A program made the translations under genes and the position numbers. Under the pieces are notes generated by a model that was not told the DNA's origin, made no database searches, and worked only from the letters and a program-made list of their open reading frames with translations. Source: Candidatus Tayloriibacteriota bacterium (lineage in GTDB: Bacteria > Patescibacteriota > Minisyncoccia > Phycocordibacterales > CAIZLB01). Taken from it: a stretch of DNA of 64,000 nt. Shown here piece by piece: positions 11,777 through 52,234 of the stretch. The DNA lies in NCBI GenBank assembly GCA_018883165.1, contig VEQN01000003.1:9721-73720 (forward strand), in the 5' to 3' direction. Positions within the stretch are counted from its first letter, which is position 1, and each line of letters opens with the position of its first letter.

Positions 11777-11783
11777 GAAAGTA

Positions 11784-11813
11784 TTGACTTTTTATAATAT
11801 AGTGTGGTATAAT
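11784..11813 (+). promoter_or_regulatory. sigma70-like promoter with extended -10 (TTGACT-N18-TGgTATAAT)
   Basis: TTGACT at 11784-11789 and TATAAT at 11808-11813, preceded by TGG. Confidence 0.5.
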
Positions 11814-11868
11814 ATTATTTAGAATACAGATACTCAGTTTTCAACTCAACATCCAACACCCCGACAAC

Positions 11869-12435
11869 ATGAACTCTGCAACGCTCCTTCACATTGCACT
11901 TTCAGTGCTTTCAGTCATCCTTTCAATATTTGTCGACTCACTCATCGAATGGTGGGTCCACAAATACCCCATGCATCGTAAATTGCCAGGGCCATTCTTC
12001 AAGTTTTTGTTTCGTCACCACGTGACGATTCATCACGCGAAGTTCAGTGGTGAAGCGTATCATCACCACAACCATAAAGACCGCGAGACAATCGCGTTTC
12101 CTTTGTGGGTTGGCCCACTCCTGATTCTAACAGCCATCAGCCCATTCTGGGCCTTCAGCTACTACATCGGGAACAACATACCAGTGTACAGCTCACTCGC
12201 TGTGGCCATCCTTTACTATGTGTGTTTCGAGGGCTTTCACCAGCTCATGCATATGGAGGATTACCCAGTAGTTCGCTGGATCAGGAAAAGCAAGTGGTTT
12301 ACTTGGTTGGATACCCACCATGAGATTCATCATCTCAAGGCTGGTGTTAACTTCAACCTAGTCTGTCCACTAGGCGACTATGCCATGGGGACGCTTCTTA
12401 CAGCTTCAGAGTACGCTCTAAAGTTCAAGAAGTGA
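11869..12435 (+). CDS. fatty acid hydroxylase superfamily membrane di-iron oxygenase (sterol desaturase/CrtZ-like His-box protein)
   Basis: Four histidine boxes: HKYPMH (HX4H), HHVTIHH, HQLMH (HX3H) and HHEIHH (HX2HH), within a 188-aa protein with 3-4 TM helices. The pattern is typical of the membrane FA hydroxylase/desaturase superfamily. Confidence 0.6.
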   Translation: MNSATLLHIALSVLSVILSIFVDSLIEWWVHKYPMHRKLPGPFFKFLFRHHVTIHHAKFSGEAYHHHNHKDRETIAFPLWVGPLLILTAISPFWAFSYYIGNNIPVYSSLAVAILYYVCFEGFHQLMHMEDYPVVRWIRKSKWFTWLDTHHEIHHLKAGVNFNLVCPLGDYAMGTLLTASEYALKFKK

Positions 12436-12452
12436 AAGAATGACAACTTGAG

Positions 12453-12485
12453 GCCCACCACCGATTCGTTCGGGGTGGGCTTTTG
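12453..12485 (+). terminator. rho-independent terminator
   Basis: GCCCACC accgattcgttcgg GGTGGGC followed by TTTT. Confidence 0.6.
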
Positions 12486-12537
12486 TCATATTTGCATTTT
12501 TATAAACATATGTTATTATGTTTATACGTAAGCCCAC

Positions 12538-44026: not shown

Positions 44027-44188
44027 GTATTTGACTGATATTAATATTAGTTGTATTGTTTTTTTGGACCAAGGCAACGACTCAGCTTCGGACTCCCCTG
44101 TACTACAAGGTGCGGGAAGTCCAAAGGGGCTTTTCGTGCTGAGCAAAGGCTCTTTTACAGGTAGCATTCGAGTCACCCCTACACAACA

Positions 44189-44941
44189 GTGAACGCAACA
44201 GATACGCCAGTCACAGGCTCACGTGACAACTACAGCCTCACCATGAGGATCCATGGGATGTATTGGAAAAACTGGTGGAGACCACGCCAGGATACAGCAT
44301 ATCTCGATAATCTGACTCATAAGTACCTACCGAACATCAAAAACGGATACCAAGCTAGTCTTGCGTATCATAACAACGAGGGGTACATGGGTGGCAGTGT
44401 AATCTTCCTTGTACTGACACTTCTTGTGTCAGCGTACATTGGATGGATTTGCTCCGAAGAGTCGATCCTGGTACTACCCAAAGAGCACACACTGCTCTTT
44501 GCAGCGTTTGTGCTCCTACTGGCTGGGTTCCTGTTTTTCACTGAGAAATTCTTCAACACCAGAGTGTCCAACTTCACCAAAGAAGTGGCGCTCAGGTGGA
44601 GAACCTTTTTCAACGAGACACTGGAACCTTCCGGCATGATTACACATCTGCTCAACTGGACATCCAAGCTTACTGACTCTGAATACACTGTGGTTGACGA
44701 GAGCTGTACGAACAGTATTCCGCATCACATTGCAGCCACCCTCAGGAAGCTTGCATACGACAGAGCTGTCGACGTCATGAGAGAAGTACAGAAGGTAGAA
44801 AAGAGTAATGATCAGGTTGAACGGAGGAAGCATGACCGTATCCTCTTACCTTTGATATCTTACATCATGATGTCTGAGAATGTCACGTACGAAGATCTAC
44901 GCGCTCAAATCTACAGAGACGCGAAGGTGCGAGCATCGTGA
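44189..44941 (+). CDS. hypothetical membrane protein in a visibly GC-richer segment
   Basis: 250 aa with two TM helices. GC-rich codons (CTG, GCC, CGC) are unlike neighbouring genes. Confidence 0.45.
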   Translation: MNATDTPVTGSRDNYSLTMRIHGMYWKNWWRPRQDTAYLDNLTHKYLPNIKNGYQASLAYHNNEGYMGGSVIFLVLTLLVSAYIGWICSEESILVLPKEHTLLFAAFVLLLAGFLFFTEKFFNTRVSNFTKEVALRWRTFFNETLEPSGMITHLLNWTSKLTDSEYTVVDESCTNSIPHHIAATLRKLAYDRAVDVMREVQKVEKSNDQVERRKHDRILLPLISYIMMSENVTYEDLRAQIYRDAKVRAS

Positions 44942-44945
44942 CACA

Positions 44946-44980
44946 AACCCCGCCTCGGCGATTGCCAGGGCGGGGTTTTG
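44946..44980. terminator. rho-independent terminator
   Basis: CCCCGCCtcggcgattgccaGGGCGGGG followed by TTTT. Confidence 0.55.
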
Positions 44981-45007
44981 TACTATTCAAAGGAGTGTTG
45001 CAAATAC

Positions 45008-47871: not shown

Positions 47872-47995
47872 ATCCCACCCCAAACAATATTTGACAAAAC
47901 GTGTTTAAATATGTCATAATATTTCATTGAACTAATTCCCTCATTCCGAGGGTTTTCGTTTAATATCAGATCCTCGACAACACCCATAACACCTC

Positions 47996-48271
47996 ATGAA
48001 ACGTATCCTTATCGTCTTCACCCTCACCTTAGGGCTAGCTAGCTTTTTTTACTGGCAAGCTCCTTCCAAGCAGGATGGCAAGAAATCTCGAACCTACGAA
48101 GTGACTCGTGTCACATCAGACAGTTCGGAGCCAAATCTTGTCATCGGTAATGTGACGGTCACCATCGATCCGAGCAATGAGCCGGCCAGTCCACCAGAGA
48201 GCGATCCTCTCTGGCAACAAGCAAGAGCTGACGCTTTGAAACAGCAGCAGCAAAACAAGAAAGCAGAATAA
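47996..48271 (+). CDS. hypothetical small secreted protein (GC-rich segment)
   Basis: Signal peptide MKRILIVFTLTLGLASF. 91 aa. Confidence 0.4.
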   Translation: MKRILIVFTLTLGLASFFYWQAPSKQDGKKSRTYEVTRVTSDSSEPNLVIGNVTVTIDPSNEPASPPESDPLWQQARADALKQQQQNKKAE

Positions 48272-48298
48272 CAACCCACACCCACCCGACACACTCAG

Positions 48299-49474
48299 AT
48301 GAAAACCATTCTCACTCTTCTCGCCAGCTTGTTGCTGGTCTCTAACATGTTCGCTGGTCCAACGACCACGACAACCACCACGCAAACAACGACAGCGAGT
48401 GCAGCTCCTGCACCCGAAGAAATGTTGATGTTGTCTAGCGCCGCCGAGCTCAAGCTCTACGCGCTCAGCTCCATCACGTCTGCCAGTTCGTTTGTCTGGG
48501 GCCAGTCCATCCTGCGGTCTGTCGGCGACGTCACAAGTATCTATGTCGAAGGCGACGTTGATCAGGTCACAGAGCGCCTGCTCCTGCCTGGTAACCAGTT
48601 CCGCTTCAAAGTGCGAAACAACAACGAAGTCTATGTCTACGCAACACTGAATAACTCCAGTGGCGAGAGCCTCTTTACGAGTTATGCTCCTGCGGCTCCA
48701 ATCGCAGGTGGTGGACAGTTGGTCATCAATCCAACGCTGCGACTCCAGATGAATTGGGTCATCCCCGTGTATTTCCCTGGCGCCCAATACGCGACCATTT
48801 ACTACACCGATGATCAAGGTAACTCCTGGCAAGAAAATCTGAACGTCGGCAACGGGAAAATCTACTTCCCAGTCAACTATGCTGGCCGCGGCACACTCGT
48901 CGTTGGTCGCCAGTATCCAAACAACGCCACTGGCGGATACGATTTGGAAGTTGCCTATAACCTGACCACAGGTGCCCTGATTCAAAGCCAGGTCATCGCA
49001 AGTCAGGTTGGATATGTTGGTATCGAGAACTACATCGCCTTCAGCGACAAACTCTCACCAACAATTGGCACCTTGGTTTTGACCACGAGCATGACTCCAC
49101 CATCGAAAGATCAGTGGGGCTTCATATCCCCTCCCACCGGCTCCATCAAACTGGAGTCCACGCAGGAAGGAGCAAGCCGCCCATTCAAACTCAATGTCAG
49201 CTTCTCGTGCACCCCACAGGAACTCGGAACCATTCAGGCGTTCGCCTATGACCCGACAACTGCTGATGCAGATGGCTTTGTCGACGAGTTCCCTGGAGTT
49301 GTGACTACGACAAGTTTTCAAACTCCCAGTGGAACTACGCAGACAAACGTGACGGTGACCTGGACGGTCACCCGAAACACCGCTACCTCCAAGTGGCTGT
49401 GGCGTCTCGAGACGACAGGATTCAACAAGCAAGCGAAGCCTCAACCACCCTATTACGGAGTTGGCAAAGGCTAG
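48299..49474 (+). CDS. hypothetical secreted protein with poly-Thr linker (GC-rich segment)
   Basis: Signal peptide, a TTTTTTTQTTT linker and a beta-rich body. Codon use is visibly GC-richer than flanking genes. Confidence 0.5.
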   Translation: MKTILTLLASLLLVSNMFAGPTTTTTTTQTTTASAAPAPEEMLMLSSAAELKLYALSSITSASSFVWGQSILRSVGDVTSIYVEGDVDQVTERLLLPGNQFRFKVRNNNEVYVYATLNNSSGESLFTSYAPAAPIAGGGQLVINPTLRLQMNWVIPVYFPGAQYATIYYTDDQGNSWQENLNVGNGKIYFPVNYAGRGTLVVGRQYPNNATGGYDLEVAYNLTTGALIQSQVIASQVGYVGIENYIAFSDKLSPTIGTLVLTTSMTPPSKDQWGFISPPTGSIKLESTQEGASRPFKLNVSFSCTPQELGTIQAFAYDPTTADADGFVDEFPGVVTTTSFQTPSGTTQTNVTVTWTVTRNTATSKWLWRLETTGFNKQAKPQPPYYGVGKG

Positions 49475-49499
49475 TCGATGCAAAAGCGTCTTCATGAGG

Positions 49500-49533
49500 A
49501 AAGCCCAGGCAGCGATGCTTGGGCTTTTTTCTT
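49500..49533 (+). terminator. rho-independent terminator
   Basis: AAGCCCAggcagcgatgcTTGGGCTT followed by TTTTT. Confidence 0.6.
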
Positions 49534-49651
49534 TATCCACACATGCATACTAAAACTTGCTTTTTTAATATATATGTGGTAATATTATATCTGGAAGTAC
49601 ACACGCCGTATTTCCTTAACCCTTAACCCAACACCCAAGGAGGATACAAAA

Positions 49652-49846
49652 ATGGCGAAAAGTAATAACCACATAGGGCGCGGATGCCCACTCGATCCTA
49701 TTGATCGAGAAGATAGTGAGGATAAGTCATGGCTTAATCAACCATGGCCAAAGATCCAAATTCCAGTAAAAGCAACAGTCCGCATGACGGACTGGGGCGA
49801 ATTCTGGAAAAGCCAAGGTCAGGGGACCTTGCGCAAGACGAAATAA
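49652..49846 (+). CDS. hypothetical small Trp-rich protein
   Basis: 64 aa. The only strong SD in the window (AAGGAGG, 7 nt upstream of the ATG). Followed by the hairpin CTGCCG...CGGCAG plus T8 at 49858-49895. Confidence 0.4.
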   Translation: MAKSNNHIGRGCPLDPIDREDSEDKSWLNQPWPKIQIPVKATVRMTDWGEFWKSQGQGTLRKTK

Positions 49847-49892
49847 TAAGCGTTACCCTGCCGTCTACGTTCAATCCGTTGCGGCAGTTTTT

Positions 49893-51122
49893 TTATTTGT
49901 CCCCTCTCACTTTTTTAAATACAAACACACTGATTACCACAAACACTGTAATTACTAAAGTTGCAATTTGATACCTTACACTTCCCACAGAAACTAGTGA
50001 TGTAACCGTATATCCCCATACCAATGGCCCAATGAGTGACGATGTTCTCTCAACCAAACCAAAATATCCAAACGTTAGGTTATGCATCCCACTTGGTGTG
50101 AGATATGACATCACCGCACGTGATACTGCCCAACTTGCACCAAACCAAAATCCCATGAGCGTTGCACAAACTACGAACAAAGAGAATGTTGGTGCATATC
50201 CAATCGACGGAAGAATGAATATCCAACCATAGAGGATCACGGTAAGTGTTTTCTTGTGACCAAACCGGTCACCGATTCTTCCTCCAATGATACCACCAAG
50301 TGCTGATGTAACGACGATACCAGCAAGGATTGCAGATTTCAATGTATCCGACACACCCCATACTTGTTCAACAAATATTGGGAAATTGTTCGCAGCAGTA
50401 AGTACCGTATCGTTAAACAAGAAGTACGTAAGGAAAAACAGAAGTACCGGTTTGTATCGAAAGAGCTCAACTGTTGAATTCCATATTGATCGAGCATGTT
50501 CTTTTAGTTTCTTCGCATCTGGAAAAACTTCCCTCTTTGGCTCATGAAAGAATATGAGCATAGGTAGTGAGAGCACTACATACAGTATTGCGGCAGGAAT
50601 TAATGTTTCAAGTCTTCCAGATACACCAAAGATTGACCATGTACCATTAGCAAACGGAAGTGCAAACAAAAGTCCTGCAAACTGACCAATATAATTTAAA
50701 CATACTCCATACCCTGACACCCTCCCTCTTTCATGTTCATGAGATATATCATTAATGAGTGGTGTATAGAATGTAAAGGTGAGCATGTAGAAAAACATAC
50801 CAAGGGCAAACAATGCGAGTGAAACCGCAGGATTTCCATATATACCAAACCAAGCACACAGGATATATGCAACCGTTGTGAATATAGTTGTCACACGCAA
50901 ACCTGAGATTCTTCTCATTCGTGTATCCATTAAAAATCCAACCACCGGAACCACGAACAACAGAAGAATGGTGGCATATGTGTAAGTCAGGTTGTATGAG
51001 AGGTCGGTGAATCCTTTTTCAATGACAATCCATTGAGAAAAATACAAGAAGAATATTATGGATATAATCGAATTTGCAAAGTCATATGATGCCCACAGCC
51101 AAATATTCTTTCTTGTTTTCAT
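49893..51122 (-). CDS. MFS transporter (Atg22/UMF1-like)
   Basis: Twelve TM helices and the N-terminal WASYDFANS motif. Confidence 0.75.
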   Translation of the reverse strand: MKTRKNIWLWASYDFANSIISIIFFLYFSQWIVIEKGFTDLSYNLTYTYATILLLFVVPVVGFLMDTRMRRISGLRVTTIFTTVAYILCAWFGIYGNPAVSLALFALGMFFYMLTFTFYTPLINDISHEHERGRVSGYGVCLNYIGQFAGLLFALPFANGTWSIFGVSGRLETLIPAAILYVVLSLPMLIFFHEPKREVFPDAKKLKEHARSIWNSTVELFRYKPVLLFFLTYFLFNDTVLTAANNFPIFVEQVWGVSDTLKSAILAGIVVTSALGGIIGGRIGDRFGHKKTLTVILYGWIFILPSIGYAPTFSLFVVCATLMGFWFGASWAVSRAVMSYLTPSGMHNLTFGYFGLVERTSSLIGPLVWGYTVTSLVSVGSVRYQIATLVITVFVVISVFVFKKVRGDK

Positions 51123-51717: not shown

Positions 51718-52122
51718 TTACCAATTCAAATATGTGATTGTCAGTTGAAGACATGTTGCAAATGTCACCCAAAGGAGATATGGAATATTTGCATATGAGA
51801 CAAACCTAAGTGCCGGTACTTTCTTTGGCGTAGAAATCATAAACCATATGATTGTTCCCAAGATCAGCAAAATATCAATTGAAGCAAGCAGGTTGTTTTG
51901 TAGTCCAAATTGAATTGGTGAAAATATGAGATTGAAAAAGAGGTTTAATGCAAATGGCAAAGCTACAATTCTTGGAATTTCTCTCTTGTATGCTTTGTAA
52001 AACACATACCCGAATGTAATGAAGATAATAGTGTAGAGAAATGTCCAAGCAGGTCCAAAAACCCATGAGGGTGGCGCCCAGGTTGGTTTGATAAGTTCAG
52101 TGTACCAATTGTATTCGTTCAT
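51718..52122 (-). CDS. tspO: TspO/MBR family tryptophan-rich sensory protein
   Basis: WYTELIKPTWAPPSWVFGPAWTFLY signature. Confidence 0.75.
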   Translation of the reverse strand: MNEYNWYTELIKPTWAPPSWVFGPAWTFLYTIIFITFGYVFYKAYKREIPRIVALPFALNLFFNLIFSPIQFGLQNNLLASIDILLILGTIIWFMISTPKKVPALRFVSYANIPYLLWVTFATCLQLTITYLNW

Positions 52123-52162
52123 GTCCTGATTTTAGCACGACTATTGAAACCACTTAAATTTG

Positions 52163-52234
52163 TGACCCTACCGGGAATCGAACCCGGCTTTAGAGCTTGA
52201 GAAGCTCTCGTCCTAACCGATAGACGATAGGGCC
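52163..52234 (-). tRNA. tRNA-Glu (anticodon CUC)
   Basis: Reverse complement GGCCCTATCGTCTATCGGTTAGGACGAGAGCTTCTCAAGCTCTAAAGCCGGGTTCGATTCCCGGTAGGGTCA. Features: 7-bp acceptor stem, GTCTA..GGAC D-arm, anticodon loop TTCTCAA, and T-arm CCGGGTTCGATTCCCGG. No encoded CCA. Confidence 0.85.

Follow-up and report, generated by a model that had tools for sequence, protein, structure and literature searches.

The stretch of DNA considered here, hereafter the window, comprises 64,000 nucleotides of contig VEQN01000003.1 and carries, between yqeY and a gene for a major facilitator superfamily (MFS) transporter, a segment of about 47.89-49.54 kb in which two forward-strand genes appear to form a self-contained transcription unit, referred to below as the cassette. 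The first gene (47996..48271) encodes a small protein of 91 residues identical to NCBI entry MBU3668584.1, while the second (48299..49474) encodes a protein of 391 residues identical to MBU3668585.1 (FGM57_01300); both accessions are annotated as hypothetical proteins and belong to a metagenome-assembled genome of Candidatus Taylorbacteria, within the Parcubacteria, which fall in the candidate phyla radiation (CPR). Upstream of the pair lies a predicted promoter (47891..47920, forward strand) composed of TTGACA at 47891-47896, an 18-nucleotide spacer and an extended -10 element, TGt-CATAAT, at 47912-47920, which together score 11/12 plus the TG in a consensus scan. This is followed by a predicted 5'-terminal leader hairpin (47926..47964, forward strand), in which UGAAC/GUUUA pair as the outer and CCCUC/GAGGG as the inner stem and which includes a U-rich internal loop, and by a G-poor, C/A-rich leader (47965..47995, forward strand) that is predicted to be fully unpaired, contains no Shine-Dalgarno sequence and ends ...GACAACACCCATAACACCTC before the ATG. 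The intergenic spacer (48272..48298, forward strand), as read from the sequence, is C-rich and G-poor (ACAACCCACACCCACCCGACACACTCAG) and also without a Shine-Dalgarno sequence. The unit closes with a predicted intrinsic terminator (49496..49535, forward strand), an inverted repeat forming a 16-bp stem followed by UUUUUU, with a minimum free energy of -25.8 kcal/mol and a z-score of -5.5. A search of Rfam returned nothing above the gathering threshold, the sub-threshold matches being a ctRNA-like one at the cassette terminator and a chance match to MicC.

An initial annotation of this DNA had described an abrupt shift to a richer guanine-plus-cytosine (GC) composition between yqeY and the MFS gene, together with three open reading frames (ORFs) of 91, 391 and 64 residues, a poly-Thr stretch, an AAGGAGG Shine-Dalgarno sequence and a long antisense ORF, all of which were found as described. 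Computation of GC content in sliding 1500-bp windows across the 64-kb stretch, with edges located at 300-bp resolution, likewise confirmed the compositional shift: against 0.403 for the window as a whole, positions 47990-49490 reach 0.528, compared with 0.400 (standard deviation 0.018, maximum 0.457) in the remaining 1500-bp windows, corresponding to z = 7.2. The rise starts at ~47950 and ends at ~49540, an extent that matches one transcription unit. At third codon positions the GC content (GC3) amounts to 0.511 in the 91-residue gene and 0.615 in the 391-residue gene, as opposed to about 0.33 for the host, with values of 0.278, 0.346 and 0.314 in the neighbouring yqeY, MFS and RmuC genes, respectively; that of the 64-residue ORF, which lies downstream of the cassette, is 0.477.

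The proteins encoded by the cassette show features of export, the large one being secreted and its small partner of the membrane or secreted kind, which in this respect bears out the initial annotation. The 91-residue protein carries an N-terminal hydrophobic segment of the transmembrane or signal-anchor type, a conserved beta-strand motif G-x-V-x-V-x-I-D and a motif PESDPLW..A...A.KQ. The 391-residue protein begins with a Sec-type signal peptide, followed by PTTTTTTTQTTT, has a Thr-rich linker at about residues 22-36, and continues into about three beta-sandwich domains and a conserved C-terminal KPxxPYY..KG tail; the mature form has an isoelectric point of 4.8, a single Cys and a composition rich in Thr, Ser, Gly, Ala and Val. 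Many Gly, Pro and aromatic positions are invariant in the family alignment. A profile search recovered 243 representative clusters at E<1e-3, mostly of 330-415 residues, while the close homologues number nine at 49-58% identity and one at 33%. AlphaFold supplied with a 52-sequence alignment gave an all-beta multi-domain model with a predicted local distance difference test score (pLDDT) of 89.3, compared with 68.9 for an earlier 10-sequence model. Foldseek comparison of the 10-sequence model with PDB gave no match, and for the 89.3 model all that it retrieved from PDB and BFVD were generic matches of the Ig/Fn3 or tail-fibre-like kind, with template modelling (TM) scores of about 0.1. Neither Pfam, NCBIfam nor PHROGs offered a family for any of the three products, and Pfam found no meaningful domain in 52 family members.

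Two apparent similarities were considered and rejected. A single Asp-box, TDDQGNSW, lies at about residues 170-177, with D171, G174 and W177 invariant in the family, and accounts for a weak match to a sialidase in a PDB sequence-profile search (E 3e-3); a sialidase or BNR beta-propeller is, however, contradicted by the presence of one Asp-box only, by the beta-sandwich model and by the lack of any Pfam BNR or Sialidase match. Profile matches to the giant proteins P0132 and P0154 proved to reflect generic fn3 and beta-propeller proteins and nothing specific. Searches with Pfam and NCBIfam for the window protein, and with Pfam for 52 relatives, revealed no SLH, CWB2, LPXTG or lipobox module. From its sequence, the large protein would be an exposed component of the cell surface or of an adhesion structure, and since it carries no anchoring module of its own, the small protein is proposed to tether or escort it at the membrane.

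Homologous cassettes were collected from JGI, ENA, Logan and NCBI assemblies, and together with the window they define 11 distinct loci (the window, L001-3, L004-7, L008-10 and L011-L017). At 10/11 of these the small-plus-large gene pair is confirmed, with the small-gene homologue directly upstream of the large gene; in L016 the contig begins at the large gene. In L001, and also in L002 and L003, the public call for the small gene (532-945 in L001) is in the wrong frame and yields a 137-residue Arg-rich product in place of a conserved 97-residue protein at 608-901, an error of gene calling to which the atypical composition probably gave rise. Where the surroundings are AT-rich, as they are in ten contexts, cassette GC exceeds that of the flanks by 9-21 points and the edges are sharp, also in copies of only 28-35% protein identity, whereas in a host of 0.51 GC the cassette has a GC content of 0.524, about equal to that of the flanks. 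Across hosts averaging 0.387 ± 0.047 (range 0.30-0.51) cassette GC is 0.508 ± 0.017, and the two are not significantly correlated (r = 0.29).

The GC-richness is nevertheless not a symmetric one, and in this respect the original description requires amendment, as the excess is one of sense-strand cytosine. Cytosine makes up 0.27-0.30 of the sense strand in 10/11 cassettes (0.30 in the window) as opposed to 0.16-0.20 in genes of the host, whereas the share of G stays the same at 0.22; only L017 departs from this, being rich in G (G 0.30, C 0.22). The C-richness extends across the transcript, the untranslated leader and the intergenic spacer included. Within coding sequence, GC3 is 0.51-0.66 in the window gene and its homologues, and it is C3, at 0.36-0.39 (0.39 in the large gene of the window), rather than G3, at 0.20-0.22, that is elevated.

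These loci bear directly on the earlier suggestion that a foreign piece might have been joined into the contig during assembly or binning. The abruptness of the compositional change is the sole point in favour of such a chimera. Against it, the same gene pair and the same step occur between CPR-type genes on continuous contigs at 11 distinct loci from many independent assemblies, the promoter region is common to the homologous loci, and L013 links the cassette directly to orthologues of the window's DsbB and MFS genes (73-75% identity); a chimera is thus effectively refuted.

Conservation is not limited to the coding sequences. Firstly, the promoter arrangement TTGACA-N18-TGnTATTAT is kept upstream of the cassette in L001, L004, L008, L011, L012, L013 and L014. 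Secondly, a predicted hairpin occupies the same place in eight loci, namely the window and seven closer loci, its outer stem being GAACG/CGUUC and its inner stem differing in sequence between lineages yet remaining complementary, such that CCCUC/GAGGG of the window is replaced by UUCCCU/AGGGAA in L001, AUCUCC/GGAGAU in L012 and CCUCC/GGAGG in L015. The hairpin of the window, a motif found once within the 64 kb, begins 0-3 nucleotides from the transcription start predicted by promoter geometry and folds with a minimum free energy of -12.3 to -14.2 kcal/mol (z -3.1 to -3.6), while the corresponding values across loci are -9.6 to -13.9 kcal/mol (z -1.9 to -4.5). Because the covariation detected by RNAalifold in an ungapped alignment of the hairpins, whose loop lengths differ, is weak, the assignment rests on single-sequence folds and on the visibly different but complementary stems. 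Thirdly, a leader block, TTGACAnCACCCATACCTC-ATG, is common to the homologous loci. The whole predicted 5' untranslated region of the window cassette consists, when folded, of a 5'-terminal hairpin and then an unpaired leader.

The absence of a Shine-Dalgarno sequence from this leader is in keeping with the remainder of the window, in which none of about 48 other gene starts has a strong one and a single start has a weak GAGG, leaving the sequence ahead of the 64-residue ORF as the only strong one, as first noted. Because the host genome is thus essentially without Shine-Dalgarno sequences, the initiation region of the cassette is host-style. Many genes of the window have a -10 box 6-10 nucleotides ahead of the ATG, and CAC(C) often stands shortly before the start; the sequence suggests that many host genes may be leaderless. 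Stem-loops at the 5' terminus are known to stabilise bacterial mRNAs, examples being ompA and the Gram-positive aprE and slpA leaders, and by analogy the cassette hairpin may serve a similar mRNA-stabilising role.

The codon usage that accompanies this composition is opposite to that of the host. In the 391-residue gene of the window GTC, GGC and CGC account for 0.57, 0.45 and 0.50 of their respective codon sets, versus 0.02, 0.06 and 0.00 in the ribosomal-protein genes and dnaK, while TCA accounts for 0.03 versus 0.58; in the same reference genes GCC stands at 0.03, ACC at 0.07, and TCC and CCC at 0.00. C-ending codons exceed G-ending ones in 8/8 four-fold boxes of the window gene and in 7/8 for the homologues. 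These data can be set against an explanation by ordinary translational selection, according to which a very highly expressed operon would have adopted host-optimal codons. The consensus-like promoter, the 5' hairpin and the strong terminator would be expected of such an operon, and among two-fold pyrimidine codons (TTC, AAC and ATC) the cassette and the ribosomal-protein genes lean the same way. The four-fold boxes, however, favour precisely those C-ending codons that ribosomal-protein genes and dnaK avoid, and these genes have a GC3 of 0.24-0.34, the ribosomal-protein genes being the lowest in the window. Because the codon choice of the cassette is opposite to that of highly expressed host genes, ordinary translational adaptation is highly improbable.

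A further explanation, and the one favoured by the initial annotation, is recent horizontal acquisition, in which the cassette would have arrived from a GC-richer donor and would retain the composition of that donor because amelioration has not yet taken place. The sharpness of the step speaks for such an origin, as do the presence of other GC-rich single-gene units in the window, the existence of a family member in a 0.51 GC genome, and a codon pattern like that of moderately GC-rich bacteria. A recently imported sequence, however, should not display the same anomaly in all 10 AT-rich contexts and at protein identities as low as 28-35%. Nor should it be saturated at synonymous sites with its GC3 unchanged; the window gene agrees with its homologues at only 0.33-0.40 of third positions, a value near saturation.

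Divergence of the cassette also tracks that of its flanks. Large-protein identity is 93% where DsbB identity is 97% (L011/L013), 80% where the flanking genes are at 88% and 79% (L001/L004), 51% where DsbB and MFS are at 73% and 75% (window/L013), and 37% where the flanking genes are at 76% and 55% (L012/L006), cassette and flank divergence rising together over the four pairs. The L001 and L004 cassettes have moreover diverged in place, since the adjacent upstream (left-flank) gene is shared.

The balance of substitutions leads in the same direction. Third-position changes between strong (S; G or C) and weak (W; A or T) nucleotides were polarised in the trio L001/L004/L008 for the cassette and, as a control, in six host genes of the window, L023 and L025. 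In the cassette S→W and W→S changes number 101:93 on 249 S and 206 W sites, giving an equilibrium GC3 of 0.53 that equals the present value, whereas in the host-gene control they number 203:327 on 305 S and 820 W sites, giving an equilibrium GC3 of 0.37; the difference in bias is significant (binomial p = 2e-5). On individual branches S→W/W→S is balanced as well (32/24, 24/35 and 28/21), T→C changes offsetting C→T changes. The composition of the cassette is thus held at equilibrium and does not ameliorate toward that of the host.

Position and presence of the cassette, by comparison, vary between relatives. L023 and L025 share with the window the order RecR-L21-280aa-RmuC-YqeY, their YqeY proteins being 87-90% identical to that of the window. 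After yqeY, L025 has two other small units within about 1.07 kb and then MFS-DsbB, and L023 has two small units and then DsbB; neither contig contains the cassette, while L011 and L013 have it on the far side of DsbB. By DsbB and MFS identity L011 and L013 (73-75%) are closer to the window than are L023 and L025 (62-68%). Because the latter lack the cassette and the former have it beyond DsbB, it changes place or disappears from one lineage to another, and the interval from yqeY to DsbB is, on the sequences compared, a variable region. Presence among close relatives is patchy, as is characteristic of genomic islands.

The slot units of the two relatives (L023 6750-8166, L025 4860-5936) encode products of 78, 86 and 84-94 residues, and each unit has a promoter to itself, a long leader and a terminator rich in GC. 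Those of L025 are C-rich (GC3 0.61 and 0.48), those of L023 only mildly so (GC3 0.39 and 0.33), and the 78-residue product of L025 and the 94-residue product of L023 have in common an N-terminal motif, M..(T)NLL.I..L.

Signs of a mobile vehicle were sought with negative results. No integrase or transposase lies in or beside the segment; a 23-nucleotide flanking repeat considered as a candidate attachment site is 78% identical, lies partly in coding sequence and is at chance level; and the nearest tRNA gene, the only one of the window, is 2.6 kb away. IMG/VR and the phage and plasmid collections yielded no relatives of the cassette, a search of GTDB species representatives with the cassette profile gave no match, and the neighbours of the cassette are chromosomal housekeeping genes (RecR, L21, RmuC, YqeY and DsbB).

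Of the proposed acquired islet, then, the compositional outlier and the insertion or deletion between relatives stand, and the absence of the cassette from its slot in L023 and L025, together with its different placement in L011 and L013, fits an acquisition. That the import was recent is not supported. In addition to the shared anomaly, the saturation, the scaling of divergence with the flanks and the balance of substitutions, a promoter, a leader without a Shine-Dalgarno sequence and a 5' hairpin, all of host style, have been conserved together with the cassette, the phage, plasmid, viral and GTDB representative searches gave no match, and no near-identical donor copy was found, the nearest homologue being 58% identical and likewise in an AT-rich CPR context. 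Recent acquisition is, on balance, unlikely.

A process that could raise the equilibrium GC3 in place is GC-biased gene conversion at a recombination hot spot, where allelic exchange of a surface locus would drive the fixation of W→S changes. Exchange is common among genes for surface proteins, CPR bacteria are considered naturally competent, and both the variability of the locus between relatives and the raised equilibrium value would be accommodated. The effect required, however, is very large (about +25-30 GC3 points) and the observed bias is strand-asymmetric, with C3 well above G3. Cassette synonymous divergence is not clearly above that of the flanks, and the composition step coincides with the transcript ends and does not taper. 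These considerations render biased conversion decidedly unlikely.

Taken together, the data on composition, divergence, substitution balance and conserved architecture make it probable, in our judgement, that the segment is a native, self-contained two-gene operon of the Paceibacteria/Parcubacteria (CPR) whose composition is kept by a force specific to its transcript. The operon would be transcribed from its own sigma-70-type consensus promoter, through a hairpin-led, C/A-rich leader devoid of a Shine-Dalgarno sequence, to a strong terminator, and it encodes a membrane-anchored 91-residue protein and a Sec-secreted, acidic 391-residue protein with a Thr-rich stalk, Ig/Fn3-like beta-sandwiches and one Asp-box. 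C-richness belongs to the gene family as such, with T→C gains replacing C→T losses at equilibrium, and the movement or loss of the cassette between lineages would give it the appearance of an islet in the variable slot between yqeY and MFS-DsbB.

Selection at the level of the mRNA or of its codons would most likely maintain the C-richness, and three candidate forces may be ranked. The first is mRNA-level selection, for example for a long-lived, hairpin-capped mRNA that would resist AU-directed RNases; it is placed first because it would agree with a leader and spacer rich in C, with the 5' hairpin and with the matching extents of composition step and transcript. The second would be selection for non-optimal, host-rare codons that set the rate of translation or draw on an idle tRNA pool, and the third sensitivity to Rho, since the RNA has more C than G.

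Several points weigh against the interpretation of the cassette as a native operon of maintained composition. The polarisation of substitutions rests on parsimony in a three-taxon star at 57-62% third-position identity, with a control drawn from a different trio, and same-strain contigs are identical across the cassette and so offer no within-population single-nucleotide polymorphisms to polarise. The distant family member that is not anomalous in its 0.51 GC host indicates that a GC-richer reservoir exists, and the preference for GGC, GCC, ACC, CGC and GTC resembles the ordinary usage of moderately GC-rich bacteria. Absence of the cassette between yqeY and DsbB in two relatives, and its location on the opposite side of DsbB in two others, would also fit transfer among relatives. 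Finally, we only infer the surface location of the large protein, the interaction between the two proteins and the reason for the maintained C-richness.

With still greater reserve, a broader proposition may be advanced as a tentative possibility, namely that a family of CPR surface operons carries a transcript-wide, selection-maintained C-rich code that is independent of host GC and written in host-avoided codons, and that this code would set mRNA lifetime or translation kinetics in organisms without Shine-Dalgarno initiation; other small GC-rich units may follow the same rule.

Two such units occur elsewhere in the window. One, at 11780-12490, has a GC3 of 0.58, a promoter-like TTGACT-N18-TATAAT, a C/A-rich leader ending ...CCCCGACAAC-ATG and a GC-rich terminator; its product is a 188-residue membrane protein with HxxHH-type His motifs, for which neither Pfam nor NCBIfam has a family. 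The other, at 44030-44990, has a GC3 of 0.57, encodes 232 residues from an ATG at 44243 and has its own promoter and terminator. The unit separates RecR from L21; since L023 has nothing at this place and L025 an unrelated 228-residue gene, this slot, too, is variable.

Immediately downstream of the cassette lies a separate small unit (49557..49897, forward strand), with a weak -35 element TTGCTT and an extended -10 element TGgTAATAT (49557-49585) as read from the sequence, an ORF of 64 residues with four Trp (49652-49846, forward strand) preceded by AAGGAGG at 49637-49643, and a predicted terminator hairpin at 49858-49887 (forward strand) plus a T-run, reaching to 49894 (minimum free energy -13.4 kcal/mol, z -3.8). 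In the protein collection searched, this ORF is neither annotated nor matched by a homologue. At the same position by the MFS 3' end, L025 carries a weakly similar unit with a GGGAGG Shine-Dalgarno sequence, in which the motifs M.K..(I/L)GRGC.LD and V...DW..F are split by a frameshift. The initial annotation had included the 64-residue peptide in the islet; its Shine-Dalgarno sequence and terminator are indeed its own, but it is an independent neighbouring unit and not part of the cassette, with a positional counterpart in L025, which lacks the cassette. On weak support, the sequence may represent a real lineage-specific small gene. That its Shine-Dalgarno sequence should occur in a genome otherwise without them is curious.

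On the opposite strand of the cassette, an ORF of 289 residues (48116..48985, reverse strand) had been put down as spurious. It was examined as a possible overlapping gene and discarded, the open frame not being conserved: it contains 5-14 stops in seven full- or near-full-length homologues and 1 in a partial homologue.

Beyond these units, the MFS/Atg22-like transporter gene (49893-51122, reverse strand) matches among GTDB representatives only DPANN archaea and one Pseudomonas, which gave no synteny. Its nearest relatives, from Woesearchaeota and Nanoarchaeota, are 53-56% identical over the full length, and this suggests exchange between CPR bacteria and DPANN archaea. The tRNA gene of the window, at 52162-52234 (reverse strand), specifies a tRNA-Glu whose anticodon, CUC, reads GAG alone, and adjoins a TspO/MBR-family gene at 51718-52122.

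The significance of the cassette is at least twofold. Atypical GC content is routinely taken as proof of recent horizontal gene transfer and, in metagenome bins, as a sign of contamination; a conserved native operon that forms so strong a compositional island would urge caution with both kinds of composition-based call in CPR genomes, and would point to an unrecognised constraint on one transcript. The homologues furthermore define a sizeable uncharacterised family of about 243 clusters, in which a secreted beta-sandwich protein goes together with a partner at the membrane and the 5' leader hairpin is conserved, and this would plausibly be a component of the cell surface or of host contact in episymbiotic bacteria, the surface biology of which is almost unknown. 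The protein family and its leader are uncharacterised and the constancy of their composition is unusual; a literature search found no description of the protein family or of maintained GC-rich genes in CPR bacteria, which does not prove that none exists.

Comparison with systems described elsewhere reveals both similarities and differences. The large protein shares with the Asp-box (BNR) proteins and sialidases one conserved S/T-x-D-x-G-x-S/T-W motif that aligns to a sialidase blade (E 3e-3), but it presents this single motif in a beta-sandwich and not in a multi-blade propeller, and no catalytic sialidase residues were found in it. Comparable in organization are operons of Gram-positive bacteria that encode S-layer or major surface proteins and possess stabilising stem-loops at the 5' end, for which Lactobacillus slpA provides an example, as E. 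coli ompA does for the hairpin principle. Like these, the cassette has a strong predicted promoter, a 5'-proximal hairpin, an unstructured leader and a strong terminator, and its product has a Sec signal peptide, is acidic, beta-rich in its model, rich in Thr, Ser, Gly, Ala and Val, and nearly free of Cys. It differs in showing no similarity of sequence or fold, the best match being the Sap S-layer protein (E 1.3e-2, TM 0.10), and in that the 391-residue protein is without an SLH, CWB or LPXTG module.

At the level of codons, parallels exist with genes in which non-optimal or rare codons are functionally selected, such as the bldA/TTA-dependent Streptomyces genes and, among clock genes, frq and kaiBC. 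The cassette similarly keeps codons that are rare in the host and avoided by ribosomal-protein genes, a bias conserved across species; it differs in that C-richness is not confined to particular codons but covers the whole transcript, leader and spacer included.

With genomic islets the cassette shares an atypical GC content and codon usage as well as a presence and position that vary among relatives, but it has no integrase, no tRNA attachment site and no flanking repeats beyond chance, and its anomaly recurs, with no amelioration, in ten AT-rich hosts whose homologues are as little as 28-35% identical. Finally, the phage 'morons' of Hendrix are autonomous units of promoter, gene and terminator that have an atypical composition and interrupt pairs of genes which relatives have side by side. 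The cassette resembles them in possessing its own promoter and terminator, in its deviant composition and in sitting between genes that are closer together in relatives, and several small units occupy the same slots in relatives of the window. In contrast to morons, however, it resides in a cellular CPR chromosome and has no phage, viral or PHROG match, and its composition is at equilibrium rather than simply inherited from a donor.

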